DNA from: Escherichia phage KarlSchell_Bas89 | Direction: 5' to 3' (one strand) | Sequence record: PQ850613.1 | DNA: 64,000 bases | In this document: positions 22,686 through 45,867 of the stretch, in pieces | How the letters are laid out: each line of letters starts with the position of its first letter | Numbering within the stretch: the first letter of the stretch is position 1 | The notes under the pieces: model-generated | Databases searched by the model: none | Told to the model about the DNA's origin: nothing | Seen by the model: the letters and a program-made list of their open reading frames with translations, nothing else | Translations under genes and position numbers: made by a program

Positions 22686-22694
22686 AAAGACCTC

Positions 22695-24267: not shown

Positions 24268-24284
24268 ATCTAATCCTTAGACAA

Positions 24285-24312: not shown

Positions 24313-24313
24313 T

Positions 24314-24858: not shown

Positions 24859-25050
24859 TCACTCTGCCATTTGAGGAATCTCTAGATGCTTTATAGAGAA
24901 GTTTTTATTTGGGAAAGTCTTTATTAGCCAAGCTGCTTCTTGGATAGCTTTGTTTTCTTTCTCGTAAATACAAAGCCGAGCATCCAAGGAAACAATTCTC
25001 CCGGTTTCGCTGACGATTACCCATGTTTTATAGGTATAAGTAGGGGTCAT
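24859..25050 (-). CDS. hypothetical protein
   Basis: ORF only. Confidence 0.3.
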   Translation of the reverse strand: MTPTYTYKTWVIVSETGRIVSLDARLCIYEKENKAIQEAAWLIKTFPNKNFSIKHLEIPQMAE

Positions 25051-25066
25051 TGATAATCCTTTTGAA

Positions 25067-27694: not shown

Positions 27695-27706
27695 CCTCTC
27701 CTTTTA

Positions 27707-28084
27707 TTATCGGTATAGTAAATCTGTAAATGCTTGATTATCTGCTATTACATCCAAAGCCTCATCCGTGCTAGGAGTTTCAGCTTCTTCTACTTGGTAC
27801 ACAACCTCACGCACACGGAAAGCTCTTGCAGGAACCCTAAAGCCAGCATGTCTCTCCATAACATCTTTCTGAACCTGTGCAAGTTTCATACCCCACACTT
27901 CTTCATAAAGCTCTGGATGTTTATTACTAATAACTACATATTGGCGATGTACGGATTTCGACTCTCTGACCTTAGCTAGTAACTCATTAAACAGGTCTAA
28001 CTCTTCTTCAGAGAGTGCATCCACAATATCTTCCCACTTCTCTACACAGAAGCGGTGGGCATGTCTGATAGGTAATGGCATCAT
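27707..28084 (-). CDS. hypothetical protein
   Basis: ORF directly upstream of polymerase gene. Confidence 0.4.
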   Translation of the reverse strand: MMPLPIRHAHRFCVEKWEDIVDALSEEELDLFNELLAKVRESKSVHRQYVVISNKHPELYEEVWGMKLAQVQKDVMERHAGFRVPARAFRVREVVYQVEEAETPSTDEALDVIADNQAFTDLLYR

Positions 28085-28339
28085 TTACCCCTTAGGGAAA
28101 GGAAGAAGATTTTCTACTGCAACACGATAAACTTTTTCTACGTTTTTGTTTTTATAGGAGATAAACTTGCCATCAGCACCACGAAGAATTACATTAGTGC
28201 GAGCAGTCTTCGGGTTCTGGGAAATCTGACCAGCAATGATAGACGCATTAATCGCATTATCAGCGAAGTTAGCAAACTTCCACTTAACCAGTTTATTGGA
28301 AATTGAATCGATGATAGTTACAGTTTTTACGATAGACAT
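28085..28339 (-). CDS. hypothetical protein
   Basis: ORF only. Confidence 0.35.
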   Translation of the reverse strand: MSIVKTVTIIDSISNKLVKWKFANFADNAINASIIAGQISQNPKTARTNVILRGADGKFISYKNKNVEKVYRVAVENLLPFPKG

Positions 28340-28363
28340 ATTTTATTACCTAAAGGGTTTGTA

Positions 28364-28393
28364 TAAAAGAAAAGGCCACCCAAGCGGGTAGCC
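28364..28393 (-). terminator. putative rho-independent terminator (minus strand)
   Basis: GGCCACCC-AAGC-GGGTAGCC hairpin with A-rich run on plus side. Confidence 0.5.
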
Positions 28394-28398
28394 TCTGA

Positions 28399-28893
28399 TT
28401 AACTAGAGCTTAAAGCGTGTCTGATAGCTGTATGGCTTACACCAAACATCCTACCTAAAGCTCTTGTTCCAAACTGAGCAGAACCTTTGACATAAAGGTT
28501 TTTAACTCTTTTAACATCCTCTGTATTAAGTTTCATTCTAGGGTTTATGTTCCTGTGATGGCCTACATTAAGACCTGTATCAAAAGAATGTTGAACATTC
28601 TCAGAAGCATCTGCCCACTCTAGATTCTCAATACGATTATCACTTTTTACACCATTCTTATGATTTATCTGAGGTTTGTTTTCAGGGTTAGGTATGAAAA
28701 AGGTTGCTATCAACCTATGAGCTTTCCATGACCTCCCTTCAAAATAAACCCTAATATAACCTTTAGTGTCTAAGTGGCCAGCCTCTTTACCCGGATGGCT
28801 CTTATTCCACTTAAAACCTTTTGAAGATGACTCTGTGTAAAACAGACGACCAGAATCTCTATCATAAGAGAGGTAGTCGGATATAGGAATCAC
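28399..28893 (-). CDS. HNH homing endonuclease
   Basis: AHRLIATFFIPNPENKPQINHKNGVKSDNRIENLEWADASEN. Confidence 0.8.
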   Translation of the reverse strand: MIPISDYLSYDRDSGRLFYTESSSKGFKWNKSHPGKEAGHLDTKGYIRVYFEGRSWKAHRLIATFFIPNPENKPQINHKNGVKSDNRIENLEWADASENVQHSFDTGLNVGHHRNINPRMKLNTEDVKRVKNLYVKGSAQFGTRALGRMFGVSHTAIRHALSSS

Positions 28894-29201
28894 TGACTCA
28901 GCGCCCCCTTCCTTCCACCATTTGATTTTCCAGCTCGATCTCCACTTTTGCCGCCAGCTGAACGATTGCTGCTGACTGTCTCAACACGTAAATTGCTTGA
29001 CGCATTAGAGCCTCCTGATTTAATGGCTCGTTTGTGTCCGACATCTTTACCTTTGAGTGCAGATTTTCCAACGCGTTTCTCAACGATGCGACGTGCACGG
29101 TGGCGCTGAGCATCTCCGCTCTTACTTCCAACTCCCGTTTCACCTCTTGCGATGGCTGTACGTCTTTCTTGTGCATAATCTCTTTTAGCCTTATCAGTCA
29201 T
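28890..29201 (-). CDS. basic K/R/G/S-rich small protein (possible nucleic-acid-binding)
   Basis: Good RBS AAGGAG 8 nt upstream; TAATGTATA 37 nt upstream; a second ORF (28898-29176) is open in another frame. Confidence 0.4.
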   Translation of the reverse strand: MTDKAKRDYAQERRTAIARGETGVGSKSGDAQRHRARRIVEKRVGKSALKGKDVGHKRAIKSGGSNASSNLRVETVSSNRSAGGKSGDRAGKSNGGRKGALSQ

Positions 29202-29237
29202 TTACAACTCCTTAATATATCAGTGTACACTAAGGAG

Positions 29238-29246
29238 TATACATTA
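29238..29246 (-). promoter_or_regulatory. TAATGTATA promoter-like element (minus strand)
   Basis: Exact 9-mer on minus strand 37 nt upstream of 29201 start. Confidence 0.45.
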
Positions 29247-29259
29247 TGAGAGGGTAGCT

Positions 29260-30000
29260 TTAGTTGCCACCCTTCTCCATAGCTTTAACGATTGCTTTAC
29301 AGAAACCAGAACGAACAATGTCATCCGAGTCGCCATCAACAATATCAGCGAACTCGTACAGATCATGCTCATCAATGAACTCGGTAGCCCAAGTAAGACC
29401 ACTCTCCCGACCTTTCATATCGTGCTGGTTAGTGTCACCCATGCAGAACAGCTGGGATGTTTCACCCAAGCGGGTCATGATAGAGAATGCTTCATCTTTG
29501 GTTGTATTCTGGAACTCATCCACAATAACAATGGCATCATTGAAAGAGCGACCACGGAGGTATTCCAGAGGCACAAACTCAATATTCCCATTACCAAGCT
29601 GGCATTCATAAAAACCTTTACCATATCGCTGAGTAATCACATCAACAATAGGCATCAGGTATGGTTCGAACTTATCACGAAGCCCACCCGGAAGTAACCC
29701 AAGAGAATTACCCATGCCAACAGAGGGTCGGCTAATGATAATCTTTTGAATCTTACCACTCTTCAGTGCATCAATGACAGTAGAGGTGATGACGAATGTC
29801 TTACCACAGCCCGCAGGAGCGTCTGTGAACACCACTTGTTTAGTCTTGATAGCATTGAGTAGCTCAGATTGAAACTGATTCTGAGGGACCACTGGCTTCG
29901 CTAAAACAACCTCTTCATACTCACGCTTACCTTTCTTGGTGACTAAGGCTTCACGACGTAAATCTTTACGAGATTCTCTACGGGACTGTCTACGGCTCAT
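29260..30000 (-). CDS. phoH: PhoH-like ATPase
   Basis: Walker A DAPAGCGKTF and PhoH-like length/architecture. Confidence 0.8.
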   Translation of the reverse strand: MSRRQSRRESRKDLRREALVTKKGKREYEEVVLAKPVVPQNQFQSELLNAIKTKQVVFTDAPAGCGKTFVITSTVIDALKSGKIQKIIISRPSVGMGNSLGLLPGGLRDKFEPYLMPIVDVITQRYGKGFYECQLGNGNIEFVPLEYLRGRSFNDAIVIVDEFQNTTKDEAFSIMTRLGETSQLFCMGDTNQHDMKGRESGLTWATEFIDEHDLYEFADIVDGDSDDIVRSGFCKAIVKAMEKGGN

Positions 30001-30182
30001 TTGCGCTCTCCTAGCTCTTCGTAATTAAATACAGAGGTTCGACAATCTTTACATATTGTTGTATAGACTCGAACATTAATGAACTTCTTGTTCTTCCCTT
30101 TGGTGGGTGAGCCTTTAGCAAGCTCACTGATAACTTTAGAACTTAAGTTTAGGTTTGTGCCTTCACATTTAGAGCACTTCAC
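29997..30182 (-). CDS. small zinc-ribbon protein
   Basis: CSKCEG ... CKDCR cysteine pairs. Confidence 0.35.
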   Translation of the reverse strand: MKCSKCEGTNLNLSSKVISELAKGSPTKGKNKKFINVRVYTTICKDCRTSVFNYEELGERK

Positions 30183-30345
30183 TCAGGCTCACCAACAGTA
30201 ACTTCCAAAACAACTTGAGAGATGATGTTGTTGATCTGTTTGATTTGCTCATAAGTCAGTTGCATACCTTTCATTTTCCGAGGGGCATTACTTCGTGCTC
30301 TTCGCTGACGATAAAAATTGTTCTTTTTGACAGAGTGTAAGCTAC

Positions 30346-30576
30346 TCATTTTAAATCCACCAACTCAAGATTCCACCAAACATCTTCCATTCTCGGCGAA
30401 CGCCCACCGAATGAGTCGTCGCAGTTCTTGTTGTTTAGGGTGTAATCGATAGAGTAACAAGGCACACCTTCATCTTCTAGCTGCTTTCGAGTCGGTTTAT
30501 CTTGGAACACAGCTTCGAAGTATGAACCATCTTGATCATATTCATTTATTTCACGAGTTAGAACCCATACTTTCAT
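30346..30576 (-). CDS. hypothetical protein
   Basis: ORF only. Confidence 0.3.
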   Translation of the reverse strand: MKVWVLTREINEYDQDGSYFEAVFQDKPTRKQLEDEGVPCYSIDYTLNNKNCDDSFGGRSPRMEDVWWNLELVDLK

Positions 30577-30794
30577 TTCACAACCTTAAACTTAAATGTT
30601 GTTGGGTGGTAGTAGTGTAACCTGTTTATTGTGTGCTTAGTCTCATGATACAGAACACAAGAGTGGCACATTGAATGGTGCAAACAGGTTACTGGATTAC
30701 GTTTGAAATTGGCAATAAGCTTCCGCTTGTTACAGAAGCTACATGTTTTGTGTAAGTCCATTAACTCTCCAGAGTTTTCCTTAGAGCTGACCAA
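30573..30794 (-). CDS. Cys/His-rich small protein
   Basis: CSFC ... CLHHSMCHSC. Confidence 0.35.
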   Translation of the reverse strand: MVSSKENSGELMDLHKTCSFCNKRKLIANFKRNPVTCLHHSMCHSCVLYHETKHTINRLHYYHPTTFKFKVVK

Positions 30795-31417
30795 GAAATT
30801 GGGTAGAGTTTAGCCATCTCTTCATCTAATGACTGAGCAAACAGTCGAACTTCATACTGAGCATGGGATGATAGTCGTTGACGACACAATTCAAACCAGC
30901 CATACAAGCTACCAGTCCAGACCCACTCAGTAATCATTCCCTGAGGAAGAACAAAGCGAGCTTGCTCTGGTGCAATAAATTCAATTAGCTTATCATACGC
31001 TGCCAGTGAAGCTTCGTATGCATTATTGATCAGCATTAATGCTTCGGCTCGTTCTCCGTTGACAAGCTGTGTCCCTGAACCTGCATGGAGGTCCGAAGGT
31101 CTCGCAAAAATCTCTTTAGGGATGAAGACTTCAACTGCTCCATCTTTATACCGCCGGGACATTTCGTTCCACGAGAACCCAATTTGGTGTTTTCCAAGCT
31201 GTCTCGCAATTGCGATAGGTGCTTTGCATCGGAAACTGACTTGTGGGTGTCGGAATGGCGTAACATGCTTCTCTCTTGCGAGAAAGTTGATGAGACGTTC
31301 ATCGCGATCATTTAAATCACCTTCGCGGGTTACGCCAAAGGAAACTCGAGCTGCGTTTACTACGCTACGATCACTTCCCATAGCTTCGATTAATGTTGCT
31401 TGTAATTGTTCATTCAT
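30761..31417 (-). CDS. thyX: flavin-dependent thymidylate synthase ThyX-like
   Basis: KAPIAIARQ ... SWNEMSRRY and LSSHAQYE match ThyX signature regions as recalled; canonical RHR appears as KHQ. Confidence 0.75.
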   Translation of the reverse strand: MNEQLQATLIEAMGSDRSVVNAARVSFGVTREGDLNDRDERLINFLAREKHVTPFRHPQVSFRCKAPIAIARQLGKHQIGFSWNEMSRRYKDGAVEVFIPKEIFARPSDLHAGSGTQLVNGERAEALMLINNAYEASLAAYDKLIEFIAPEQARFVLPQGMITEWVWTGSLYGWFELCRQRLSSHAQYEVRLFAQSLDEEMAKLYPISWSALRKTLES

Positions 31418-31436
31418 CCGTGAATTTCCTTATTTC

Positions 31437-31712
31437 TTATTTAATATCCAAAGCTGTTACTAAGAAAGCTTTCAGGTTTGCTTCAGTCTGCATACCAGAT
31501 AAGCTATAATGTGCTCCGCTGTTACGATTAGGCACAATGAAAGCAGGAATGCTTCGTACACCGTACTCGATAGCTCGCTCACGACCGTTGCCTTCGAGGA
31601 TATTAACCTCTTCAACTTCTAGGTTAAGCTCTTCAGCTAATTTGTTGAGGGTAGGAGCCATTGCTTTGCAAGGGGCACATTGATTACTATAAAACTTAAT
31701 AATTTTGTTCAT
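31437..31712 (-). CDS. thioredoxin/glutaredoxin-like protein
   Basis: CAPC active-site-like motif near N-terminus, about 90 aa. Confidence 0.55.
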   Translation of the reverse strand: MNKIIKFYSNQCAPCKAMAPTLNKLAEELNLEVEEVNILEGNGRERAIEYGVRSIPAFIVPNRNSGAHYSLSGMQTEANLKAFLVTALDIK

Positions 31713-31719
31713 AAAAACC

Positions 31720-31974
31720 TTAAGCAGTGATCAGGTGGAGGGTAAATGGGATGACCACAGAGATAATAACCCAAGCAACAGATGCGATTTGGATTTCATT
31801 CTTCTTGTCCGGTGTCTCTTCAATAAGTTTCTTGCTGCCATAATAAACACCGCCGCCAATGAGAAGTGCCCAAATACTCCAAATGGTTGCTGATAACATA
31901 TTCAATTCCTTATAAACAAGTTCGCCCCACCTCGGATTAGGAGACAGGGCGGAGGTTTTAGTATGAGACGTCAC
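31720..31974 (-). CDS. small membrane protein (two predicted TM helices; holin-like)
   Basis: Hydrophobic segments IWSIWALLIGGGVYY and VAWVIISVVIPFTLHLI. Confidence 0.3.
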   Translation of the reverse strand: MTSHTKTSALSPNPRWGELVYKELNMLSATIWSIWALLIGGGVYYGSKKLIEETPDKKNEIQIASVAWVIISVVIPFTLHLITA

Positions 31975-32545
31975 TGGAGTGTGACATGTTACTTTTAACG
32001 AAGTAGCAATACTTGCCTAACCCTTCGTTGATTTCTTGGAGCATGCTCTGGTCAACTGGATACTCGCTCAAACATCCATCGAACTCATCCATTTTGTCAA
32101 TCATGCACATTAAAGACATGCACATATCAGAGAGCATACCATCCATATCTAGGTCTGCATTTCCTTCAGAGAACCAAGAGTGTGACAAGTAGTTAGAAGC
32201 AGTTGCATCCACCTTAATACAGTGGAAACGCATACGTTCAGCTATCCGATCACCTGTCTCACGAGCATAATCTTCCAGCTCATCAAACATTCCATGAACA
32301 CCCTGAAACCCTGCACCAGATACGTTCCAGTGATAATTCTTAGCTTTGATATGCAAGAGTTCTAAGTTAGCTTGAATACCGCATAGAATGTGTTCTAGGC
32401 TGTTTCCACTAATCATCCCTTGCATACGCTCTAAACGGGAGATAGAAGAGTCTGTTTCACGTAATACATCACGGAAAGAAGTCTCTTTTGTTAGAGTTGG
32501 TAAGTCGAAAACATTGTGATTAGACATTAGGATTTTCTCCATCAA
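31958..32545 (-). CDS. Dps/ferritin-like protein
   Basis: KNYHWNVSGAGFQGVHGMFDELEDYARETGDRIAERM resembles the Dps signature region. Confidence 0.5.
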   Translation of the reverse strand: MMEKILMSNHNVFDLPTLTKETSFRDVLRETDSSISRLERMQGMISGNSLEHILCGIQANLELLHIKAKNYHWNVSGAGFQGVHGMFDELEDYARETGDRIAERMRFHCIKVDATASNYLSHSWFSEGNADLDMDGMLSDMCMSLMCMIDKMDEFDGCLSEYPVDQSMLQEINEGLGKYCYFVKSNMSHSSDVSY

Positions 32546-32849
32546 GTTCTACTGAGTTCGCAACATTGCGTTCCAGATTTGAGATTACCTGTTGGGTGAT
32601 AACGATGCAGTTCTGTGGGTCAACTGACTTAGAACGTCCCATCTCAGGGTCATACACCTTAACACGTTTTGCTGTAGAACCAGTTACCTGTAACACCTTG
32701 AGAAGATAACCCTGATTCCCGATAGACCATGCAACAACATCACGATTCTTGATGAATCGACCAAGCATATCACGATGGTAGAACTGCTGCATAACCTTTG
32801 ATTTATTAATCTCTTCGGCTGGCGGAGCCACTTTACTCAAATCTAACAT
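32520..32849 (-). CDS. hypothetical protein
   Basis: ORF; TATACATTT (one-mismatch promoter-like 9-mer on minus) about 40 nt upstream. Confidence 0.35.
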   Translation of the reverse strand: MLDLSKVAPPAEEINKSKVMQQFYHRDMLGRFIKNRDVVAWSIGNQGYLLKVLQVTGSTAKRVKVYDPEMGRSKSVDPQNCIVITQQVISNLERNVANSVELDGENPNV

Positions 32850-32921
32850 TTCACTCTCTCCTGTTTAATACAATATTCTTATACTGTATATACATTTGAG
32901 AGTGATCATATCTACTACCAA

Positions 32922-33134
32922 TTAGTAGTAAACATATCCAGAGATATATGAGCCTTTATCCCCACTAAACTCAAACCATCGATGCATGTCAGCACGTTTA
33001 ACCGTACCGACTAGAGCTTTCATATTCTTCTTAGCAATACGAGCCTCTTTACGAGTGTTAAACAGTTTGATATTATCTTTACCTAGATGGTGTCCATCTT
33101 CCCAAACAACACGAACAGCCCACATCTTTTTCAT
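32922..33134 (-). CDS. small basic protein, member of tandem paralog trio
   Basis: MKKMWAVRVVWEDG ... YISGYVYY shared pattern with two neighbours. Confidence 0.45.
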   Translation of the reverse strand: MKKMWAVRVVWEDGHHLGKDNIKLFNTRKEARIAKKNMKALVGTVKRADMHRWFEFSGDKGSYISGYVYY

Positions 33135-33349
33135 TAGTAATGCACCTTTCCGCTGATATAAATACGGCCTGAGGTATACTCATAGCCCTTGAGAATCTTG
33201 ACAGAGGTAAGATATCCAGTGTGTAATTCACTGAACGATTTCTTAAGCCTACGTGCGCCTTCTCGTGTTTTCTGGTAGGTCATGGTCACACCCCCACTTG
33301 TCCACTCTGTTCTAACTAACCAAACTCTTTTCATAAGACCTGCTCTCAT
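33134..33349 (-). CDS. small basic protein, member of tandem paralog trio
   Basis: MKRVWLVRTEW ... IYISGKVHY. Confidence 0.45.
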   Translation of the reverse strand: MRAGLMKRVWLVRTEWTSGGVTMTYQKTREGARRLKKSFSELHTGYLTSVKILKGYEYTSGRIYISGKVHY

Positions 33350-33546
33350 TAGTAGTACACCTTGCTGCCAGCCATGAAAGCCCCTGTCGAGCTTATAATA
33401 ACCTTACTGATAGTAACTTTCTTATGCCGGAAGTATGTCTTCCAGCCCTTTTTACAGATTCGAGCTTCTTGTCGAGTCTTACAAAAGTCAGCCAAAGACA
33501 GCTCTTGGGTTTTGTTATCATAAACACGAACACACCACTTTTTCAT
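33349..33546 (-). CDS. small basic protein, member of tandem paralog trio
   Basis: MKKWCVRVYDNKT ... GSKVYY. Confidence 0.45.
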   Translation of the reverse strand: MKKWCVRVYDNKTQELSLADFCKTRQEARICKKGWKTYFRHKKVTISKVIISSTGAFMAGSKVYY

Positions 33547-34071
33547 TTATCTTTCATCCACATTAAAGGAGAGATGGAGTCTGCTTCTCATAGACTTAGC
33601 TAAAAGTTTTGCCTCTTCGAGAGTTTTCACTCCATATACAGACTCACGTTTACCATCTTTTTGAACAGAGACACAGAACGTCCCACCTTTCTCTTGGTAG
33701 ACATTCTTAATCCCTAGCTTGTTATCAACTCTGGTCTTAGCATTCTGACTATTTTCAGAGTGAGAACACTTTCTCAGGTTAATTTCTTCTAGATTCCCTC
33801 TGTTACCATCAGCGTGATCTATTTGATATTCATCCGATAAATCCTCACCAGTATAAAGAACAAAAAGAATCCTATGATTATGGACACGAACTCCTCCTAA
33901 GGGAATTTGGTAATATCCATCTTTTGTGAGTTTTCCAGCAGGTTTCCCTGCTATATCATTAGCAAATTTACTAGGCTTCCTTTTCCAAGAAAGCCCTGAC
34001 GGGGATGACATGTCTATGTTAAAAAGATCAAACACTTCATCATAGCATATCAGCATGGTTTGTTCCACCAA
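33547..34071 (-). CDS. HNH homing endonuclease with AP2-like domain
   Basis: YQIDHADGNRGNLEEINLRKCSHSENSQN. Confidence 0.75.
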   Translation of the reverse strand: MVEQTMLICYDEVFDLFNIDMSSPSGLSWKRKPSKFANDIAGKPAGKLTKDGYYQIPLGGVRVHNHRILFVLYTGEDLSDEYQIDHADGNRGNLEEINLRKCSHSENSQNAKTRVDNKLGIKNVYQEKGGTFCVSVQKDGKRESVYGVKTLEEAKLLAKSMRSRLHLSFNVDER

Positions 34072-34594
34072 AAGCTTTTGTTGGCCCTTGTTGGTTATTG
34101 TATGAACCTTTAGTTGCGTAACTATCTTCTTCAGAGGAGGAGTGTTTAAAGAACTCCATTTGACCGATACGCATTCCCGGCTTAATTAGCAAAGAGTGAT
34201 GCTGTAGGACGTTCTTGAATTCCATAGTAAGTTGGCTCCCATGCCACCCACCGTCAGCATGACCAGCGTGCATGTGCTCTAAGAAGCAACGACCAACAGT
34301 GGACCGTAACATGAAGTCACAACTAATATTATCTGGCAGGTTGAATGTCTCCACTGTATGAGCCAAGAAGCACTCACCCGGTTTGATAACTAAACCTTCT
34401 TCTGGAATCATAACCTCGTTGAAGTTAGGAGACTCTTTAGCGGAGATATCAACAACCCCATTAGCTGCTCCTTCCATCAGAACACGGTCTCCAATACGAA
34501 CATCAATACTGGAGGAGTTAACAGCTGAGTGAGGTGCATCAATAACACCATCATCGATTAGTTTATGTAATTCCGGACTTCCTAATAAACTCAT
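34040..34594 (-). CDS. dcd: dCTP deaminase-like (dUTPase superfamily)
   Basis: N-terminus and length resemble Dcd; beta-rich, Gly-rich loops. Confidence 0.6.
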   Translation of the reverse strand: MSLLGSPELHKLIDDGVIDAPHSAVNSSSIDVRIGDRVLMEGAANGVVDISAKESPNFNEVMIPEEGLVIKPGECFLAHTVETFNLPDNISCDFMLRSTVGRCFLEHMHAGHADGGWHGSQLTMEFKNVLQHHSLLIKPGMRIGQMEFFKHSSSEEDSYATKGSYNNQQGPTKAFGGTNHADML

Positions 34595-34608
34595 TCTTAT
34601 TCCTTGTA

Positions 34609-35889
34609 TTAATCTGCGATACTATCGCTTTCATCAACCCAGACTGTACCATTAACCTGTCTTAGACGACGAGCTGACGCTTCGTTAATAGAGTTAACCC
34701 CTGCTGTGCGAGGGTTTGTGTACCAAGGTCGAGCTATGGTGCCCTCTCGAATCACTTGGTTCGTTTCGACATGCCATCTGTTTGATACCATGTTGGCTTC
34801 AAAGTTACCACCCGCTCCACCACTGATAGGCACAGCTTGAGCTGGTTGGTTTACTCGGTTAGTTCCTGCCCCAAAGGATGCTGCAAATTCAGACATACGT
34901 GCATCAAATGCAGAACGAACACGCTGAGTAGGTGATATATCATTTCGTGTATCTACTGCACGAGGCATAGCCCAAGTATCATCTGTTGAGATATCAGGGG
35001 TAGGCTCTTGCTCTAGAGGTTGAAGATTAGCTGTCCATTGACTGTTCAGTATACGATAGAAATCTGCACCATAACCACTTCGGATAACATCTTCTCTGAT
35101 ACCAAAAAAGCGACTAATATCTCCACCGATTCGGGCCAACTTATCGTTGTATGTAGATACAGATACCCCACTTTCTGTTACTAAGTCAGAAACACGACTT
35201 GTTGTAAGTGGTGAGTTATTCCAACAATAATAGTCAGTAATGTGGCCGTCATACCCAAAGTATGCAACCTCTGCATCAGGCCATTTCTTGTGGACATATG
35301 CCACTTCGCGAGTAGAACAAACAGGGATTGCGCCTGTTTCAGTCATTGCATAGAAGCCGTCAGAAGAGAACCAAAGTGAGTCTAGTGCTAAGAATCCACG
35401 ACACACACTTGGGAAAGTAGCAGCCAGCGCCCCAAGTGAGGTGGGTTCGTTGAACATTAACTGAACCTTTGCACCCTGATAATCAATCTCTAGGATATCT
35501 ACAAAATTCAAAGAAGACCCAGGGGCATATTGACTATTACTTCGTCCAATATCCTGCTCAACAAGAAGAGATCTTGTTTCAACACCATGAGCCTCTGCCC
35601 ACTCTTTGAAATCTTCAAGGAACAAGCGAGCCTTAGCTCGCCACATCGACCGATCAGTTACGGATTGTCTCGGCAATCCGCCCTCTGTAGTGATGAGGAA
35701 GATATCAATGTCATGGGGCTCACGCGTCTGGAAGATTGCATCCCTAACAGCACCACCTGCAATGATAGGGTACACACCATCAGGGATTAAACGGTTTGCA
35801 ATCAACTCGTTAATTAACGTAAGACCAGACATAAGCTGCGGACTGTCATCAATCCGACGACGAATTAGTGCATTAGGGATATTATACAT
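34609..35889 (-). CDS. nucleotidyltransferase with Pol-beta/CCA-adding-type head motif
   Basis: IIAGGAVRDAIFQTREPHDIDIF matches GGxVRD...DxD; start ATG directly abuts the stop of the exonuclease gene. Confidence 0.45.
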   Translation of the reverse strand: MYNIPNALIRRRIDDSPQLMSGLTLINELIANRLIPDGVYPIIAGGAVRDAIFQTREPHDIDIFLITTEGGLPRQSVTDRSMWRAKARLFLEDFKEWAEAHGVETRSLLVEQDIGRSNSQYAPGSSLNFVDILEIDYQGAKVQLMFNEPTSLGALAATFPSVCRGFLALDSLWFSSDGFYAMTETGAIPVCSTREVAYVHKKWPDAEVAYFGYDGHITDYYCWNNSPLTTSRVSDLVTESGVSVSTYNDKLARIGGDISRFFGIREDVIRSGYGADFYRILNSQWTANLQPLEQEPTPDISTDDTWAMPRAVDTRNDISPTQRVRSAFDARMSEFAASFGAGTNRVNQPAQAVPISGGAGGNFEANMVSNRWHVETNQVIREGTIARPWYTNPRTAGVNSINEASARRLRQVNGTVWVDESDSIAD

Positions 35890-36438
35890 TTACATTTTCC
35901 AATATAAAGATGGGGGGTCATTTGGGTCAAAGTTTGCAATATGACAAAGATATTTATAAACCTTAACCGTTAAGTTTACATCCTGTTCACAATAAGTAAA
36001 CATGTCCTCTGTAAAGGCATCCCATGCTTCTTCCTGTTCACCGTAATCACCCTTAAGCTCTTCTAAGAACTCACCCCATTGCTTTAAGCCATGACCTCTT
36101 GGGCCATGTCTAGGGTCGCCTTTCGGATACTCAGGACTGTCACCAATACGGTCAGGTTTAAGATACCGACTCAGACATAAAGTGTCTAGGACGTTGAATT
36201 TGTAATCAATCAAATCAGGGTACATCTTCTTCAGAGCACATAAGTCGAAGTCAATAACGTTATGACCTACAACAACATCAGCCTCTGTAAGTTTCTTGAT
36301 ACCCTCTTCAATCTGGTGAGGACGAAATCCCCACCGTTCACCAGTTGCTATATCAAAGATAAAGATACACCATACGTTTGTGATATCGTCGTACAGTGCA
36401 TCACTCTCAATATCAAATGCGTAGACTTTCTTTACCAC
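35890..36438 (-). CDS. DNA polymerase 3'-5' exonuclease domain protein (T7 gp5 N-terminal-domain-like), separate gene
   Basis: [11 protein letters not shown] (Exo I), [14 protein letters not shown] (Exo II), YCEQDVNLT (Exo III) align with the T7 gp5 N-terminus as recalled. Confidence 0.75.
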
Positions 36439-38222
36439 GGGCTTTTCTCTCCATCTTGAGCAAGAAGTGATGCTGCATCCTCTCCATTTGTCAGCGAGAA
36501 TGGATTTTCTTCATCAATTTCATGTTCTTCACGCTCAAGCAGTCGTCCCGTCTCTCCTACATATTTCGTATAGCACACCCCTGTTTGTCCATAGTTACGC
36601 TCTTTGAGGAGTCGTATAATGGAGAGGTTCTTAGCCAGACCATCTGCTTGTTTGTCACGTTCAAAACCGATGATACATTGACACCAACGCATAAGAGAAC
36701 GAGAGCCAGTAAACTGTACCTCTCGAACCTGACCACCTTCTTCATGAGGTGCACCACCTGCCGGAGCATTGAGGTGAGATAATACGAATGCTGTGAAGTT
36801 TAATTCTTGACACATACCAGCAAGCTCGGAAGCAATCTTACTGATTTCAGTGTTAATCTCTGAAGGTGTTAAATGAGACACCAGAGCGGTAATATTATCA
36901 AGGATGATAAACTTACACTGGTTTTCAACAACCCAGAAACGGATACACTGTTTAATGTCGGCCCATTCATTCTGACCAAAGTTATCATAGAGGAAGAATT
37001 TATCTGCATATCGAAGAGCTTCGTTACGCAATGTATCTTCATCATACTCAACATCAGGTCTGTGGAAAGGGATAGATGCTGACTTACCTGCAATGTTCTT
37101 AACGGACATTCCGACCTTCTCTTCCAAGAAGAATCCACCACCATTAAAACCATGCTCAAGACAAAGCCAAGCAACCAGTTCATGTGCAATCAGTGTTTTA
37201 CCAGAGCCTACACCGCCACCAATTGCTACCATCTCTCCCCAACGAATACCGTAGGTCATCTCATTAAGAGTCTTCCACGGATATGGGATACCCCACTCTG
37301 CTTTCTTCAGAGCATCATCTAAGCAATCAAAAACAGTTACAGCACCAGCTGGAGATTCACGCTTCGCTGAATATTTAAGAATGTTAAACAACTCCTGACC
37401 ACGACCAGAGAGAAGCATATCATTCGCATCTTTAAGTTCTTTCTCAACACCATTGTACTGGAAAGAACCTTTAGGAATACGAGCAAACTTCACATGTGGG
37501 AACAGAGCACGCCCTTTGGTAAGAGCAATCTCACCAGCATCATCGTTGTCCATACAGAGGACAACCTCTTCAAAACCATTCAAGAACTCACGGTTGCGAG
37601 ATAGAACGGAAGAGATTGACCCTGCACCGAATGGTAAAGAGACACACGCTGGTTTAATGTTTGTTGCATTTGTAAAAGCTGTAAGAACGTGGAAGCCAGA
37701 CATACAAGACAAGGGGTCTTCAAAGATGAAGAGCTTCTTATTGTACACATCTCCACGTTTAGCCTGTGCCATACCAAACAAATCAGCTTCTTTCACACTA
37801 CCGATGTAATAAAACTTTTTACTATCGAGCAGTTTAACCTCATAACCGACAATGTTTCCATCACGTTCACGAGGGAAGAAGTAACTATCCGGTGTCTGAC
37901 CATCAGTTTGACTGAGACCTATACGACACTCAAAACGCTCTGATACAGCTTTAGGGATTAATCGACGAGTGAGTTCTCCTTGAGGTAACTCCAAGCAATC
38001 ATCCAAGACTTCTCGAAGTTCTTCAGGGGACAGCTCTTTCTTTTCATTTGGTGTAGGTGTCGTGCCTTTCTCAAAGACTTCGTAATTACCACACCGGTTG
38101 CAACTTCCAAAAGTTTCTTCAGTTTCTTCGTTATGAAACAGAATCATATGATTGCCGGTCTTGTCCCTACCATGTGACTGGCATTCTTTACAAGCGCAAT
38201 CTCCAATAATCTTTTTAGACAT
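36432..38222 (-). CDS. DNA primase/helicase (T7 gp4-like)
   Basis: Zinc ribbon CACKEC...[23 protein letters not shown], Walker [20 protein letters not shown]; start at internal Met 38222 with GGAG upstream. Confidence 0.85.
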
Positions 38223-38706
38223 ATAATCTCCATCCGTGAGTTTGTTTATATTCTCCGCTATATAACCTGTAAAGGGCGGCAGAATCAACACCAGAAAGCC
38301 TTGAAAGCTGTCTTATACTATCACCTGAAACAATTTCCCCATTACTAGAGACGATCGACATACTCTTACCAAAAGAATATATCTGATTGTACTCAGAAGT
38401 GCACCACTCTAGATTCTCTACCAGATTATTATCTGGCTGTTCATCTATATGATTAACTTGAGGTAAGTTTTCAGGGTTAGGAAGGAAAGCTATAGCTACT
38501 AATCTGTGTACACTTCTAGTACATTTAACACCTTCAGAGTTTGTCATTCTCACGTAAAGATATTTACGACTATAATGTAGAGACTTGATAGCTGGCTCTG
38601 TGGGAGGTTTTCTCCCACGTCCAGTAATTCTCCAAGATCTTATACGTCCAAAGGATGAAACCTCATACCCCGGAAAATCTGTAATTGGTTTCCATTCTTC
38701 TGACAT
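38215..38706 (-). CDS. HNH homing endonuclease
   Basis: VHRLVAIAFLPNPENLPQVNHIDEQPDNNLVENLEW. Confidence 0.8.
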   Translation of the reverse strand: MSEEWKPITDFPGYEVSSFGRIRSWRITGRGRKPPTEPAIKSLHYSRKYLYVRMTNSEGVKCTRSVHRLVAIAFLPNPENLPQVNHIDEQPDNNLVENLEWCTSEYNQIYSFGKSMSIVSSNGEIVSGDSIRQLSRLSGVDSAALYRLYSGEYKQTHGWRLYV

Positions 38707-38743
38707 GCTCTATCCTCCTTGGATTCTCCTTGAGCAAACTACC

Positions 38744-38953
38744 TTACTTATAAAAACTTCGAATCATGTCCCAGATTTCTTCCTGCTGGACCCTAAAGAA
38801 AGCTAAACGTGTCGATGTACGTTCAATAAATTCTTCACTATGCTTTTCTCTATCTAGCATACTGACAAGCTTTTCATATTTATTGATCTTCCATCGCATT
38901 TTTAAATAGTCTGATTCTAGTGTCCTTAACCTCTGACACTCAATCAAATCCAT
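38744..38953 (-). CDS. hypothetical protein
   Basis: ORF only. Confidence 0.3.
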   Translation of the reverse strand: MDLIECQRLRTLESDYLKMRWKINKYEKLVSMLDREKHSEEFIERTSTRLAFFRVQQEEIWDMIRSFYK

Positions 38954-39372
38954 CAGTTATCCTCTGACAGATAAAGAGACCAGTCACCAGATTCAACCAG
39001 TTCATCTTGCTCTTCATCAATGTGATAAATCCAAGCAGTGACAGTTTCACCACTATCCAGAACCACTTCGATAGGTGTACGCTTATAGAAAGTGTGTGGG
39101 TTGTCATTACCACGATGCCCTTCCAGCATGTCATAAGCACCCTCAACACCGTCCATGTCAGTTTTAAACACTTCAACACGAACAGGTTTACCGTTACTGC
39201 TGTGTTCCAGAGAAACACTTGGGAAGTATGAACCACCGTAGCGGTACAGGTTGTAGTTTTCTTTAGTGAAACCTTCACCAATCGATTCAGCACCTGCACG
39301 AGCATTCACTCGGAAGTTAGCCTGACCAGTACGAAGAGAACCATAAGTTGCTACATAAATTACTTCTGACAT
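38953..39372 (-). CDS. gamma-glutamyl cyclotransferase-like (AIG2/GGCT family) protein
   Basis: N-terminal YVATYGSLRTG ... RYGGSYFPSV pattern. Confidence 0.45.
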   Translation of the reverse strand: MSEVIYVATYGSLRTGQANFRVNARAGAESIGEGFTKENYNLYRYGGSYFPSVSLEHSSNGKPVRVEVFKTDMDGVEGAYDMLEGHRGNDNPHTFYKRTPIEVVLDSGETVTAWIYHIDEEQDELVESGDWSLYLSEDN

Positions 39373-39443
39373 TTTAAATACCTTTGTTCATTGTTTAGTT
39401 AATCCGAACTAGCCTCCTCTTTCGAAGAAGCTAGAGCAGATTG

Positions 39444-39626
39444 CTATGCTGTGAAGTTTTTGATTACACCGCAAATAACATCTGTTTCAAACGTACCCAC
39501 CAGAACATCGTCTCGGTAGAAGTTAATCGCCTTACCATCTCGGTTAAAGTGATCTGCTTCAATGAGCATAGATTGTACCTGACCATCTGGAGTGGAGGTT
39601 CGAAAGATGACGTTATACTGACTCAT
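39444..39626 (-). CDS. hypothetical small protein
   Basis: ORF only. Confidence 0.25.
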   Translation of the reverse strand: MSQYNVIFRTSTPDGQVQSMLIEADHFNRDGKAINFYRDDVLVGTFETDVICGVIKNFTA

Positions 39627-39865
39627 AAAGAAGTTACTCCCTTATCTTCTTGGGCGATAGAGATGATACGACTCACACACTGCATTGAGTACTCATCACC
39701 ACGCTTTAGGAACGTTACGATAGCAGAGAATTGATTACCAATCATCCGCTCATTTGTAATACCGAACTCTTTGCAGAGTTCTTTCAGTTTGCTACGAGAA
39801 CCAATAATCAGAGGTTCTTTTTCTTCAGTCATTCCACGACTAATCAAATCTTCAATAGACAACAT
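39623..39865 (-). CDS. hypothetical small protein
   Basis: ORF only. Confidence 0.3.
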   Translation of the reverse strand: MLSIEDLISRGMTEEKEPLIIGSRSKLKELCKEFGITNERMIGNQFSAIVTFLKRGDEYSMQCVSRIISIAQEDKGVTSL

Positions 39866-39888
39866 AATTCCATTCCTTGGGGGTTTAA

Positions 39889-41106
39889 TTAAAAGTTTAC
39901 TGCTTCACCATCAACGGTAGTTACTGATGCAAGACGACGAACACGGCCAATCTGTTCACGACTGATTGGAGTATTCCAACCAGAGCGATAGAAGTTGCGA
40001 CCACAGAAGAACACAACAACATTAGAAGCAATCCGTCCGTAGTTACGATCAGGGTGATTGATGTTAGCAAGATAATAACCACGGGTCAAGTTTGCATTTT
40101 CGTTGATATGCCGAGCATTTGGTGCAGTTGTTTCAGCTTGCATCATTTCAGGAACATCTTCTACGATAGGCTCAACCGTAGGTTCATCACCAGCTAAAGC
40201 AAAGTTCTCATCAGCAGCCTCTTCTGCATCATCTTCCAGCTCCACAGTTTCCTGAATAACTGGCAGAGGGTATGCTACACGATACTCAGGGTTTTGACCA
40301 CGGAGAGATTCAACATACTGCAAGAAGTTGTGCTGGTAAGTTTCCAGAGTTGTACCAGTCAGGCCCGGAGCGGTATTAACTTCTAACACCCACGCTTCCT
40401 CACCTTTACTGATAAGATCAACAGCACCAAAGTTAAGACCGAGTGCTTGTACTGCTTTGTGCGCTTGAATTAGAACCTGATCAGGTGGTGAATCATTAAA
40501 AGAGTTGGAATAAACCCAACCAGTGTGGTGATTACGAACATCTTCACGATAGTCAGGGTTATCACGATACCCATTACGACGAATCTTCTTCTGGACGTAA
40601 GTAATAACACCTTCAAAAACATGCACACGCCATTCACGACGTGGACCAGTGATTGCTTTTGTATACAGAGGAGCCTCAGCAACACCCTCACGAGGAAGAC
40701 GAACAGTGATGCCTTCACCAGAGTGACCATTAAGTACACCACGTTCGTAAACAATACTGTTTTGGTTCCAGTTAAGTGCTTCATCTCGGTTAGTGGTATA
40801 CTCAACAGTCTTGACTTCCGCAAGACGCATGGCATTGAAAGCTGCAACCTTGTTAGCCGCACGATTCAATGCTGCTACGTTGTTCAGAACCGTTGCACCT
40901 TCGAAGAAGGATTCTTGATAACGACGGTTTCCATAGTTGATAATCACGTCACCAGAACGAGCACGGAATCGGCTGGTTCCATCAGACAGAAGAGTCATTG
41001 CGTTGGCATTGATTCGGTTGTCACGGAGATGTTGATTCAAGCTGGATACCAGAGCATTAACAGAATCAGAAGGGCCATAAGGGAGAACACGGATACGAGT
41101 AGTCAT
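39889..41106 (-). CDS. ATP-grasp family ligase
   Basis: GAVDLISKGEEAWVLEVNTAPGLTG matches the ATP-grasp E-x-N...PG signature. Confidence 0.6.
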   Translation of the reverse strand: MTTRIRVLPYGPSDSVNALVSSLNQHLRDNRINANAMTLLSDGTSRFRARSGDVIINYGNRRYQESFFEGATVLNNVAALNRAANKVAAFNAMRLAEVKTVEYTTNRDEALNWNQNSIVYERGVLNGHSGEGITVRLPREGVAEAPLYTKAITGPRREWRVHVFEGVITYVQKKIRRNGYRDNPDYREDVRNHHTGWVYSNSFNDSPPDQVLIQAHKAVQALGLNFGAVDLISKGEEAWVLEVNTAPGLTGTTLETYQHNFLQYVESLRGQNPEYRVAYPLPVIQETVELEDDAEEAADENFALAGDEPTVEPIVEDVPEMMQAETTAPNARHINENANLTRGYYLANINHPDRNYGRIASNVVVFFCGRNFYRSGWNTPISREQIGRVRRLASVTTVDGEAVNF

Positions 41107-41108
41107 TT

Positions 41109-41342
41109 TTAGATACCTTTAAGTTTAAGAATTTCGTTGCGAGTACGTTGGATACGTTCTTCAAGAGTGTGATAATCAAAGATGCACATCTCTTCTGCTT
41201 CATCAGAAGGTGCATCCATTAAACCCATAGCAATCGGATACACCTTTCGCTGTTCCGTTGTCATGCCCTGTAGCCGGAGTCGTTGATACTCCAGCAGGGT
41301 AATTTTCGGCTTGTTAGTTTCCTTGCTTGACATGAGGCTCAA
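41109..41342 (-). CDS. hypothetical small protein
   Basis: ORF only. Confidence 0.3.
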   Translation of the reverse strand: MSLMSSKETNKPKITLLEYQRLRLQGMTTEQRKVYPIAMGLMDAPSDEAEEMCIFDYHTLEERIQRTRNEILKLKGI

Positions 41343-41547
41343 CCTTGATACCTTTCAGTTTCACATAGTCAGCCAGCACGTTGTTAATAACTGTTGGGAA
41401 AGGAATCTCAACAGGTGCATTAACTAACCCACCAATACCCTCTTGCATCCACTTCTGGATTGCACGAAGGTTATCACATCCTGTGCTTGTCATTGGAATA
41501 CGGCGAGTGGTTACAACGTTATCCAACATCATCTTACGAATTTCCAA
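41314..41547 (-). CDS. hypothetical small protein
   Basis: ORF only. Confidence 0.3.
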   Translation of the reverse strand: MEIRKMMLDNVVTTRRIPMTSTGCDNLRAIQKWMQEGIGGLVNAPVEIPFPTVINNVLADYVKLKGIKVEPHVKQGN

Positions 41548-42043
41548 GGTACACCTCTACATTTTCATTTAGTTTAGCAAAAGATTTGTGATGAATAGGA
41601 GCTGCTTTATTGTAAGCATTTGCTGCATCTTCCTCGGTAGAAAACCTACCAAGATACAGAAGCTTACCATCAACTCGAATCCTCGCTTCCCATTTACCAG
41701 AATTGAAGTATATTCCTTTATACTTGGTATTTTTACCATTCATAACAGAACAGTTTCTACTATTTCCTGCTGCATCAGCTTCTCTAAGATTTTCGGGATG
41801 CTGATCATCTCGGATACCATTGATATGGTCTACATATTTAGGAAGGTATCCATTATACATAAAGAAAGCTACCCTATGTGCTAGGTATGTCTTTCTTTTG
41901 AATCCGATTTGAATATACCCGCTATCTTTGTTTAGGCTTCCAGCAAAATCTCCAACTTGTTTCATCGGGGTAGGTTGTTTCCAATAGAGACTCCCCTCTT
42001 TATGTTCCAACCTAGATGCAAGCTCTATTAGTGTTTCATCCAC
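41534..42043 (-). CDS. HNH homing endonuclease with AP2-like domain
   Basis: AHRVAFFMYNGYLPKYVDHINGIRDDQHPENLREA plus YLGRFSTEEDAANAYNKA. Confidence 0.75.
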   Translation of the reverse strand: MDETLIELASRLEHKEGSLYWKQPTPMKQVGDFAGSLNKDSGYIQIGFKRKTYLAHRVAFFMYNGYLPKYVDHINGIRDDQHPENLREADAAGNSRNCSVMNGKNTKYKGIYFNSGKWEARIRVDGKLLYLGRFSTEEDAANAYNKAAPIHHKSFAKLNENVEVYLGNS

Positions 42044-42053
42044 TCTACACCTC

Positions 42054-44072
42054 TTAATTATGACCTTTACAGTGCACTGAATCGCACACCACTTGATTGG
42101 TATTGTTTAGTGTGCAGAGTTCTGCATCACGCCACGGAATCTTTTTAAAACAGACTGCACAAAACCCAAGAGTAGACCAGAGGGCTTTTGTGAAGGTTGC
42201 TGATCGGTTTCCATCGAAGGACGCAACTGTTCTGGTAATTGAGACTTTTGACTCACGAAAGGTTTCCGCTGCTGGAGCGGGTTCCTCCTTTGGGGTAGTC
42301 ACTGCAATAGCATAAACACCACCCCAACGCTTCTCAATGTAAGCACCGAACACATCTTCCAGAGTGATTTCACTCTTACGTTTGGTTGAGGATTCCATGA
42401 CAATCATGTTGTCCAGAATCTTTTGATCAACACGAAGAGCTACTTCAGGACGTCGAGCACTTGTTGTATCAACATACTTGGTCCAAACATAACCCTCTTT
42501 CAGAGTGACTTGAGTTGCTTGCTTCTTTGCTTTATTAGCACAGATTTTACAAACATCGTCACTACGAAGTTTACTGAACTCTTCATCAAATTCAAAGTCA
42601 GACTTCACTTCGCCGCACACTGAACAAACGCCGATAGGAATCTCATCCTCTTCAACGTCTTCCACTTGCTTCTGGATAGAGTCAAAACAAGCTTTATGCC
42701 AATATGCTTGGTATGCGAAGATCGCACTTGGTGCTTCTTTCCAGTCGATGTGCTTATCACAGCCACCACAATCACCGTGGGAATGGGCTTCCCAGAACTT
42801 ACGAGTGATAGTCACCCCATTCTTGCTGACAAAACTATCCTCTGCGTCAAAAGGGATATCATCATCGAAATCAGCAGTAGTGCTTTCCGGCTCCTTTTTC
42901 GACAAATCAAAGAAGTGACCAGAGATTAACACCAGACGAATCATGCTATTAACTTCAGAGATACAGCCAACCGTACCACGGTAAACCATATGCTTGTTCT
43001 TAAGAGCAGCTTCATAATCAGTTTGCAGGATGTTATGAACATCACCCTCAATATACTCTTGAGCTTTGTCATCATAAATATAACCAACCATCTTACCGCG
43101 ATCGGTATCTTTATAACAAACAAACTCATGAGGAATAATATCAACCTGCATATCACGACGGATATCAACACCTTTGTCAGAGGCGATCTTGTTTTGTTTC
43201 AAGATTGCTTCACGACGACGTACATCACCTGCGGTTACGCCGGGCTTTCTTTGCTCGTCGCTGTTCCCGTTTAAGTAACTTTTTACTACGCTTGAGTGGT
43301 TGTTGCTGTAGCTGTTCGAGTAATAACTGCCCCAACGCGTTGCTACCGTAAAAACCGGGAGTTCATGTACGACCTCCTCTACCAAAGTCATCTTGTTGTC
43401 AGAAACATCAAAGATGTACTCTGTACCGACCTTACACTCAAAGTGCTCATCAATTCGGTTCTTGTGGCTCTTAGAACGCTGAAGAATCCACATCAACATC
43501 GCTTCTTCTGAAGCACCAAACCATGAAGTTCCCAGACGGGCCAGATGGAATGGACGCTCATCGTTGCGAATGATGTGAAGACGGTTATCACTTGCATCAT
43601 GCCAGATCAGAGTGAATGCACCATCCAACTTCTGAATAGTCTCTGCTGCACCAATCTTGTTAATAGAGTGGCAGATATTCTCACTATCAACTTCAAAAGC
43701 CTTACTGTCAGGCAGGAGGTCTTGATCAACTAGGGTTCCGTTATGAACCAGAGTGATGTTTCCGTGAGAGAATGGGTGAGCGTTACGTGAGTTAATAGCG
43801 CCTTTCGTAGCATGTCGGCTGTGACCAACAATCCATGAAGGAGGCACTGTGTAATTAGTAAGGCCAGTTGTCAGCTCGGTGTACTCTTTCTGTAACATGA
43901 AAGCATAGGAAGGCAGTGCTTCTTTATAAGAGAACACAGATCTTTCGCTTTTACGCTGACCGAAAATACCAGTTGAGTGTTGACCACGAAATACACCAGC
44001 GTAGAGAAGCTGGTTGTAAATATCTAAGTCATAACTTGAGAGGCTTCCACCTGCTAATACGATACCACAAAT
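42054..44072 (-). CDS. class II (Ntn) glutamine amidotransferase fused to a Cys-rich C-terminal domain; probable non-AUG (ATT) start
   Basis: Frame upstream of the track start reads stop-K-I-CGIVLAGGSLSSYDLDIYNQLLYAGVFRGQHSTGIF, the classic MCGIV N-terminus; GAFTLIWHDASDNRLHIIRND downstream. Confidence 0.7.
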   Translation of the reverse strand: MCGIVLAGGSLSSYDLDIYNQLLYAGVFRGQHSTGIFGQRKSERSVFSYKEALPSYAFMLQKEYTELTTGLTNYTVPPSWIVGHSRHATKGAINSRNAHPFSHGNITLVHNGTLVDQDLLPDSKAFEVDSENICHSINKIGAAETIQKLDGAFTLIWHDASDNRLHIIRNDERPFHLARLGTSWFGASEEAMLMWILQRSKSHKNRIDEHFECKVGTEYIFDVSDNKMTLVEEVVHELPVFTVATRWGSYYSNSYSNNHSSVVKSYLNGNSDEQRKPGVTAGDVRRREAILKQNKIASDKGVDIRRDMQVDIIPHEFVCYKDTDRGKMVGYIYDDKAQEYIEGDVHNILQTDYEAALKNKHMVYRGTVGCISEVNSMIRLVLISGHFFDLSKKEPESTTADFDDDIPFDAEDSFVSKNGVTITRKFWEAHSHGDCGGCDKHIDWKEAPSAIFAYQAYWHKACFDSIQKQVEDVEEDEIPIGVCSVCGEVKSDFEFDEEFSKLRSDDVCKICANKAKKQATQVTLKEGYVWTKYVDTTSARRPEVALRVDQKILDNMIVMESSTKRKSEITLEDVFGAYIEKRWGGVYAIAVTTPKEEPAPAAETFRESKVSITRTVASFDGNRSATFTKALWSTLGFCAVCFKKIPWRDAELCTLNNTNQVVCDSVHCKGHN

Positions 44073-44146
44073 TTTCTAATCCACCTGAAGGGTAAACCCT
44101 TTCATCTAATTAACCTTTAGTTGTGCCCCTTTCGAGGCACCCATTG

Positions 44147-45858: not shown

Positions 45859-45867
45859 GATAACCCC

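Follow-up and report, generated by a model that had tools for sequence, protein, structure and literature searches.

The window analysed here is a stretch of 64,000 nucleotides (nt) from Escherichia phage KarlSchell_Bas89 (PQ850613.1). Its minus strand carries, at 34609..35889, an open reading frame (ORF) for a divergent, stand-alone nucleotidyltransferase (NTase) that resembles the class II (CCA-adding and poly(A)-polymerase) enzymes and is the orthologue of phiEco32 gp73 and KBNP1711 gp076. The gene, found in the ORF list, starts with ATG and encodes 426 amino acids (aa) plus a stop codon; an earlier note, made from the sequence alone, had placed an ATG-started gene at this position without stating the strand, which is minus. 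The upstream neighbour (35890..36438, minus strand) had been called a polymerase exonuclease, and was indeed identified as the 3'-5' exonuclease subunit of the DNA polymerase by the Pfam profile DNA_pol_A_exo1 (E 6e-6, above the cut-off); it shares 86% identity with phiEco32 gp74. The junction of the two genes (35887..35895, minus strand) contains the ATG-TAA-ATG arrangement described before. The minus-strand sequence reads TGG AAA ATG TAA ATG TAT AAT, in which the last codon of the exonuclease gene, its stop codon and the NTase start follow one another with zero spacer. In two related loci (L025 and L026) the two genes overlap here by 4 nt, and in phiEco32 they are 1 nt apart; translational coupling is probable at this junction. 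The downstream neighbour is a dCTP deaminase (34040..34594, minus strand; Pfam DCD, E 1.3e-31). Promoter-like and terminator-like sites around the NTase gene showed no excess over the shuffled expectation; a promoter belonging to the NTase gene itself was rejected, since the nearby promoter-like sites were at chance level compared with shuffled sequence.

The structure of the NTase was modelled with AlphaFold2 (AF2) on an alignment of 38 sequences, the homologues sharing 21-92% identity. The model is confident for aa 1-292 (predicted local distance difference test, pLDDT, mostly 85-97, with a floppy loop at 114-121), and aa 294-426 are predicted to be disordered (pLDDT ~30). The remark of the earlier note that about 350 aa beyond the motif were unrecognisable is therefore not applicable to aa 1-292, which form one confidently predicted fold; the part that follows is predicted to be disordered. 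All segments of the protein are given here with their minus-strand positions. The N-terminal strand and two helices leading into the catalytic head (aa 1-35; 35785..35889) were modelled as E2-5, H6-14 and H17-31 with pLDDT 95-97, and these elements are also present in the relative P0079. The catalytic head (aa 36-150; 35440..35784) has the alpha/beta sandwich fold of the Pol-beta superfamily, and includes the invariant Y121 in a low-confidence loop, the always-acidic position D131, and I132 and Q143. Within the head lies motif A, IIAGGAVRDAIFQTREPHDIDIF (aa 42-64; 35698..35766), which is the motif that had been read from the translation before. The next segment (aa 151-293; 35011..35439) is a lineage-specific alpha/beta subdomain in the place of the class II neck, with mixed strands and helices in the AF2 model (pLDDT 80-96) and an invariant P160. 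This subdomain contains the signature REVAYVHKKWP (aa 194-204; 35278..35310), whose pattern R[DE]xxYxx[KR]KxP is characteristic of the NTase family and occurs in 29 of the 38 sequences; Y198 and K202 are present in all 38, and P204 in 35.

The predicted disordered tail (aa 294-426 plus stop; 34609..35010, pLDDT ~30) contains short stretches that are invariant across the clade. These conserved stretches include TDDTWAMPR, NPRTAGVNSINE and the acidic C-terminus VWVDESDSIAD. The tail, about 130 aa long, is absent from the minimal family members of 274-300 aa. The AF2 model of one such relative, P0079 (279 aa, 25% identity), was confident throughout (pLDDT 89.8) and showed the same order of strands and helices without a tail. 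Because of this agreement between the models, the conserved unit of the family is a fold of about 270-290 aa, and the tail has been added to it in the E. coli-phage lineages.

Comparison of the 38 aligned sequences shows that the catalytic residues of motif A have been kept throughout the family. The invariant positions are G45, G46, R49, D50, D60, D62, F64, Y121, I132, Q143, P160, Y198 and K202. The GG..RD and D.D elements of motif A are in register in 38/38 homologues, down to 21% identity, and the hG[GS] turn and the [DE]x[DE] of the next strand, which characterize the Pol-beta superfamily, are present in the same 38 as G45-G46 and D60-x-D62. Position 131, on the predicted strand 129-137, is also acidic in every sequence (29 D and 9 E). 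The earlier note had made the conservation of the catalytic Asp residues in homologues a point on which its prediction could fail; D60 and D62 are both strictly conserved and the candidate third position, 131, is always D or E.

Structure prediction had been proposed as a check, and the head of the AF2 model is class-II-like: the top 40 Foldseek matches were all class II enzymes, and these scored clearly above the CD-NTase or Rel folds. The structural alignments span at most about 160 residues. Past the head the model consists of mixed strands and helices, unlike the all-helical neck, body and tail of the class II enzymes, and then of disorder.

The sequence searches were less generous. The profile search against the PolyA_pol and CD-NTase families, also proposed in the earlier note, gave no match above cut-off. 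Pfam PolyA_pol (PF01743) stayed below its cut-off with 13.6 bits against 23 (E 0.09, aa 43-65 only), and the phiEco32 orthologue reached 18.8 bits; PADLOC, which covers CD-NTases and other defence-associated NTases, matched 0 families at E up to 1. The family profile PHROG 12715, "nucleotidyltransferase", matched over its full length (E 1.6e-152, aa 1-425). A profile of the 38 homologues matched CCA-adding enzymes in the PDB at E 0.01 over 26 residues, and hhalign against E. coli PcnB and Cca aligned 27 and 23 residues, respectively, stopping after motif A. The PHROG of phage tRNA nucleotidyltransferases matched over only 21 residues (E 0.15). Motif A is the only stretch that aligns by sequence to PolyA_pol or to CCA enzymes. 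The PDB search with the single window sequence returned only a spurious match to a tail protein, and NCBIfam gave a single weak match, to a relative, well below the cut-off. PF26128 is listed in precomputed tables for the Kuravirus orthologues, and it was not reported by a Pfam-A scan of the same proteins.

The other class II motifs were not found at their places. Motif B (RRD, for ribose recognition) is missing in register; RRD occurs in one of the 38 aligned homologues, within the tail. As for motif D (EDxxR, for base selection), EDxxR stands at aa 266-270 in the closest clade alone (7 sequences), all the other homologues lacking it there, and the EDVIR of the window at this position was consequently rejected as a motif D. 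Membership of the Pol X/terminal deoxynucleotidyl transferase (TdT) group was not supported either, as the structural match to these enzymes is weaker than that to the RNA enzymes and the NTase lacks the accessory DNA-binding domains (8-kDa, fingers and thumb).

These results indicate that the NTase is a real and almost certainly active nucleotidyltransferase of the Pol-beta fold with a class II (CCA/poly(A)) head. The sequence evidence for the CCA/poly(A) family is weak, being confined to motif A, and the structural evidence is clear. The CCA-adding/poly(A)-polymerase type claimed in the earlier note thus stands for the head fold and motif A, and does not stand for the rest, where the PolyA_pol score, motifs B and D, the body and the tail are wanting. 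The protein is not a canonical CCA-adding enzyme, and because it fails a number of the tests that define the class II family it is filed neither as a CCA-adding enzyme nor as a poly(A) polymerase.

Comparison with known systems illustrates how far the resemblance goes. The class II tRNA nucleotidyltransferases and the bacterial poly(A) polymerase I (PDB 3aql, 1ou5, 3h37 and 1miv) share the head fold and the GGxVRD-x9-DxD of motif A; whereas the NTase has no RRD, no conserved EDxxR and no helical neck, body or tail, and has instead the alpha/beta subdomain and the disordered tail. Also comparable are stand-alone class-II-type heads of about 200 aa, namely the "CCA-adding enzyme head domain" protein 2la3 of S. 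pneumoniae and the head-only NTases of PHROG 1614 from T7-like podophages (H6UK10 of Aeromonas phage phiAS7, gp11 of Ralstonia phage DU_RP_I and gp13 of Caulobacter phage Percy). This group shares with the NTase the GGxxRD, the DxD, G139, usually Q143, and a [KR]xP near the end; however, the identity is 22-26%, and the long inserted helix (aa 80-113), the extension at aa 210-292 and the tail are lacking. The head-only NTases of PHROG 1614 are also found among replication and nucleotide-metabolism genes, in the gap between primase and DNA polymerase in DU_RP_I and beside a ribonucleotide reductase in locus L013.

The window phage is a phiEco32-like E. coli podophage of the Gordonclarkvirinae, as judged by megablast and tblastn against phage records. 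Its nearest relatives are KBNP1711 and EP335 (Nieuwekanaalvirus), with ~94% nucleotide identity and 91-93% identity in the NTase protein, so that it is an isolate distinct from both. The orthologues in phiEco32, KBNP1711 and EP335 are the same gene at the same position, with the same catalytic and family motifs. phiEco32 gp73 is 34% identical to the window NTase over aa 1-340, and the C-terminal third is unalignable between the genera. The RefSeq label for KBNP1711 gp076 and phiEco32 gp73 is "nucleotidyltransferase"; this annotation is already public in RefSeq, PHROGs and several genome papers, and is therefore not new. The SU10 orthologue has been seen by mass spectrometry among the early gene products (PMC4281155). 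No functional study of this NTase or of the small NTases of T7-like phages was found in the literature. The family is small: an exhaustive HMMER search of cluster representatives among 1.84 billion proteins gave 30 clusters at 50% identity. The distant members were reached by this exhaustive search; whereas a word-indexed homologue search gave close relatives only. Among cultured phages, the family was confined to 97 Gordonclarkvirinae records by tblastn.

Wherever a related locus had flanking sequence of sufficient length, its gene order was primase/helicase, exonuclease subunit, NTase and dCTP deaminase; this applies to phiEco32, to the Suseptimavirus phage TH43 and, with an NTase of only 21-28% identity, to uncultured relatives of 82-90 kb. 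At the junctions in these loci the genes abut or overlap by 4 nt. The NTase thus has a fixed place in an operon for replication and dNTP supply; the nucleotide-supply genes of the window phage include the dCTP deaminase, thioredoxin, ThyX and PhoH. The 7-11-like Salmonella phage SE131 serves as a natural absence control. It has the helicase, the exonuclease subunit (47% identity), the dCTP deaminase, PhoH, ThyX and Dps, and no NTase; in this part of its genome (6801..8080 of locus L021) only a 37-aa ORF stands where the Gordonclarkvirinae have the gene. Because this sister phage has the same module without it, the NTase is an accessory gene and not an obligatory part of the replisome, and a core replisome role was rejected on the same ground.

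Several other features were noted around this module. The family A DNA polymerase is divided over two genes: one encodes the 3'-5' exonuclease as a protein of its own, 182 aa long (KBNP1711 gp077), and the gene for the polymerase domain (KBNP1711 gp052) lies ~10 kb downstream of the exonuclease gene, with nucleotide-metabolism and small genes in between. The listed helicase ORF starts from GTG and has an N-terminus ~23 codons longer than its relatives. One of two homing endonucleases (NUMOD4 and HNH_3) is inserted at 38215..38706 (minus strand), between the primase/helicase and the gamma-glutamyl cyclotransferase-like genes. A cluster at 38953..41106 (minus strand) and beyond, also present in KBNP1711, has gamma-glutamyl cyclotransferase-like, RimK-like ATP-grasp, glutamine amidotransferase, amidoligase and COOH-NH2 ligase genes. 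This conserved cluster upstream of the replication genes is predicted to be a peptide- or metabolite-modifying system. At 32922..33546 (minus strand) there are three tandem paralogous ORFs of 70, 71 and 65 aa, which start with MK(K/R).W..R, end in ...V(Y/H)Y and have no Pfam match.

No other gene of the module differs as much between genera as the NTase: it shares 34% identity with its phiEco32 counterpart, whereas the helicase shares 93% and the exonuclease subunit 86%. Against KBNP1711 the ratio of nonsynonymous to synonymous substitution rates (dN/dS) is 0.20 for the whole NTase, 0.12 for the core (like the neighbouring genes) and 0.52 for the tail; these values indicate purifying selection on the core. 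The dCTP deaminase shares 56-58% identity with its counterparts in KBNP1711 (56%), phiEco32 and a distant relative, and the exonuclease subunit and primase/helicase that flank this segment are 98-99% identical to those of KBNP1711. An HNH_3 homing-endonuclease ORF (33547..34071, minus strand), not annotated at this place in KBNP1711, overlaps the 3' end of the dCTP deaminase gene. The dCTP deaminase segment (33547..34594, minus strand) looks like an allele swap or a co-conversion linked to the invasion of the endonuclease. A fast adaptive evolution or arms race, which the 34% identity to gp73 might suggest, was rejected; given the core dN/dS of 0.12 and the swapped dCTP deaminase next to it, mosaic exchange of old, divergent alleles is the simpler and better reading.

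With regard to function, the NTase most likely adds ribonucleotides, independently of a template, to the 3' ends of RNA in the course of infection, because the enzymes closest to it in structure all act on such ends; a probability of roughly two in five is given to this reading. The protein is predicted to be a catalytically competent, stand-alone enzyme of the Pol-beta superfamily with a class-II-type head. D60, D62 and D131 would hold two Mg2+ ions, and the activated 3'-OH of the acceptor would attack the alpha-phosphate of the NTP without a template. The alpha/beta subdomain with its basic R[DE]xxYxx[KR]K motif might replace the class II neck in gripping the nucleotide and the acceptor end. 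In the versions from E. coli phages, docking to a partner is the probable task of the disordered tail. By this activity tRNA 3' ends could be repaired or altered, or RNA could be A-tailed and so fed into turnover and the recycling of nucleotides; the reaction would not be the canonical templated synthesis of CCA.

A number of observations weigh against an RNA 3'-end activity. No tRNA- or RNA-binding helical neck, body or tail of the class II type was recognisable in the AF2 model, the structural alignments or hhalign. Without motifs B and D, the choice between NTP and dNTP and the choice of base are unreadable from sequence. The genomic context is one of DNA replication and not of RNA processing. 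The sole tRNA of the phage, tRNA-Arg(TCT) at 53287..53363 (minus strand), lies ~17 kb from the NTase; its gene ends in ...GGTGC-T-CCA, with the CCA encoded and U as the discriminator. In those parts of the KBNP1711 genome that were examined, neither an RNA ligase nor a polynucleotide kinase is annotated, and the host E. coli already has Cca and PcnB.

The last of these points bear on the tRNA question in particular. The earlier note had cited the phage's own tRNA in favour of a tRNA repair role, and this argument turned out to be weak, the tRNA being distant and complete in its coding and the host having Cca. No tRNA genes were found near the NTase homologues in eight related loci. A dedicated role in phage tRNA maturation is unlikely, because the CCA is encoded, nearby tRNA genes are absent from these loci, no ligase or kinase is annotated, and Cca and PcnB are supplied by the host. 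The repair of damaged tRNA 3' ends by the NTase is possible, since tRNA 3' ends are known immune targets.

Among the alternatives, the one that survives best is a DNA-directed role, in which the NTase is recruited to the replisome and modifies, tails or marks the phage DNA, possibly together with the dCTP deaminase, and so contributes to the restriction resistance of the Gordonclarkvirinae. Such a role is considered unlikely, and it nevertheless has several points in its favour. The order of helicase, exonuclease subunit, NTase and dCTP deaminase is kept, with start/stop abutment or overlap, down to 21-28% identity; the related small head-only NTase of DU_RP_I lies between primase and DNA polymerase; and the NTase is missing motif B, the element that imposes ribose specificity on class II enzymes. 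In T7, the tails of gp4 and gp2.5, which have Phe as their last residue, dock to the polymerase. The primase/helicases of the present lineage all end in ...SPW or ...LPF, and 9 of 25 representatives of the NTase family end in an aromatic residue, a soft point whose P of ~6e-5 is uncorrected for relatedness. The window NTase, however, ends in ...VWVDESDSIAD, an acidic end that has a Trp close by but no terminal aromatic residue. The replication module also works without the NTase in the 7-11-like phages, and dTMP is made via the phage ThyX, which argues against deoxyuridine-containing DNA (dU-DNA).

Restriction itself was considered from the published hypothesis and from the sites in the window. 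Humolli et al. 2025 reported that the Gordonclarkvirinae are markedly resistant to restriction-modification (RM) without a known modification pathway or restriction inhibitor, and named precisely these two genes, for the NTase and the dCTP deaminase, as candidates (PMC11990801). The recognition sites of the tested systems are present in the window (EcoRV 24, EcoRI 10, EcoKI 6 and EcoP1 100), and depletion of restriction sites is thus insufficient as the full cause of the resistance. Over the whole window (1..64000; 42.3% GC), 14 six-bp palindromes are absent, including the BamHI, PstI, KpnI and SalI sites; the EcoRV, EcoRI, EcoKI and EcoP1 sites have not been eliminated. Against the DNA-directed role, there is a strong avoidance of 6-bp palindromes (611 vs 953 expected), CCWGG (3 vs 91) and GATC (137 vs 297), which implies a DNA that is exposed to restriction and not globally protected. 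The specific proposal that the missing restriction-resistance factor is a replisome-docked NTase, with either the phage DNA or dNTP-derived compounds from the dCTP deaminase as its substrate, is improbable.

Another alternative is an anti-defence or signalling role, in which the NTase makes or caps a nucleotide-derived small molecule, or nucleotidylylates a protein, by chemistry like that of CD-NTase, OAS, MNT or RelA-SpoT enzymes, and so acts against host immunity or physiology. The marked divergence of the NTase between genera (34% vs 86-93% for the exonuclease subunit and helicase) would fit such a role, although the short-term evolution of its core, with the dN/dS of 0.12, is that of ordinary purifying selection. 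Also in its favour, the invariant Tyr121 lies in the model in a flexible loop beside the active site. The class II (DNA metabolism) region of T7 also carries the host-takeover and anti-defence genes gp4.5, gp5.5, gp5.7 and gp5.9, and by this precedent a location in the DNA-metabolism region does not imply a function in replication. However, PADLOC gave no match, motif A is specifically the class II GGxVRD...DxD, and the class II folds outscored those of CD-NTase and Rel. These observations make the role doubtful, a little more so than a role on DNA.

Still harder to sustain is a canonical CCA-adding enzyme for the maturation or repair of the tRNA that the phage encodes. Motif A is a near-perfect match to the class II tRNA nucleotidyltransferases; however, motifs B and D are absent (the EDVIR at aa 266-270 being found in the closest clade alone), a body and a tail domain are lacking, and the alignments are short, with only 23-27 residues to E. 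coli Cca and PcnB and 21 residues (E 0.15) to the tRNA-nucleotidyltransferase PHROG. The tRNA-Arg ~17 kb away with its encoded CCA, and the lack of tRNA genes near the homologues in the eight loci, also speak against it, and this identity is judged quite improbable. A catalytically dead scaffold, serving as a structural or regulatory partner of the exonuclease subunit, would suit the tight and probably translational coupling and the long disordered tail with its conserved short motifs, but is highly improbable, as every catalytic residue is invariant at only 21-30% overall identity, a pattern unexpected for a pseudo-enzyme.

Addition of ribonucleotides to RNA 3' ends therefore stays the preferred reading of the NTase, at the strength given above. 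Of the CCA/poly(A) enzymes, the small family to which it belongs has retained the catalytic head alone, and its gene lies inside an operon for replication and dNTP supply. The Gordonclarkvirinae are a poorly studied group of E. coli phages that are candidates for therapy, and isolates infecting E. coli K-12 exist (BASEL Bas86-94). As it stands the finding is of modest interest, which would be higher if the link to restriction resistance were true; in that case, the protection of DNA would be built on a head of the CCA-enzyme type, which would be without precedent.

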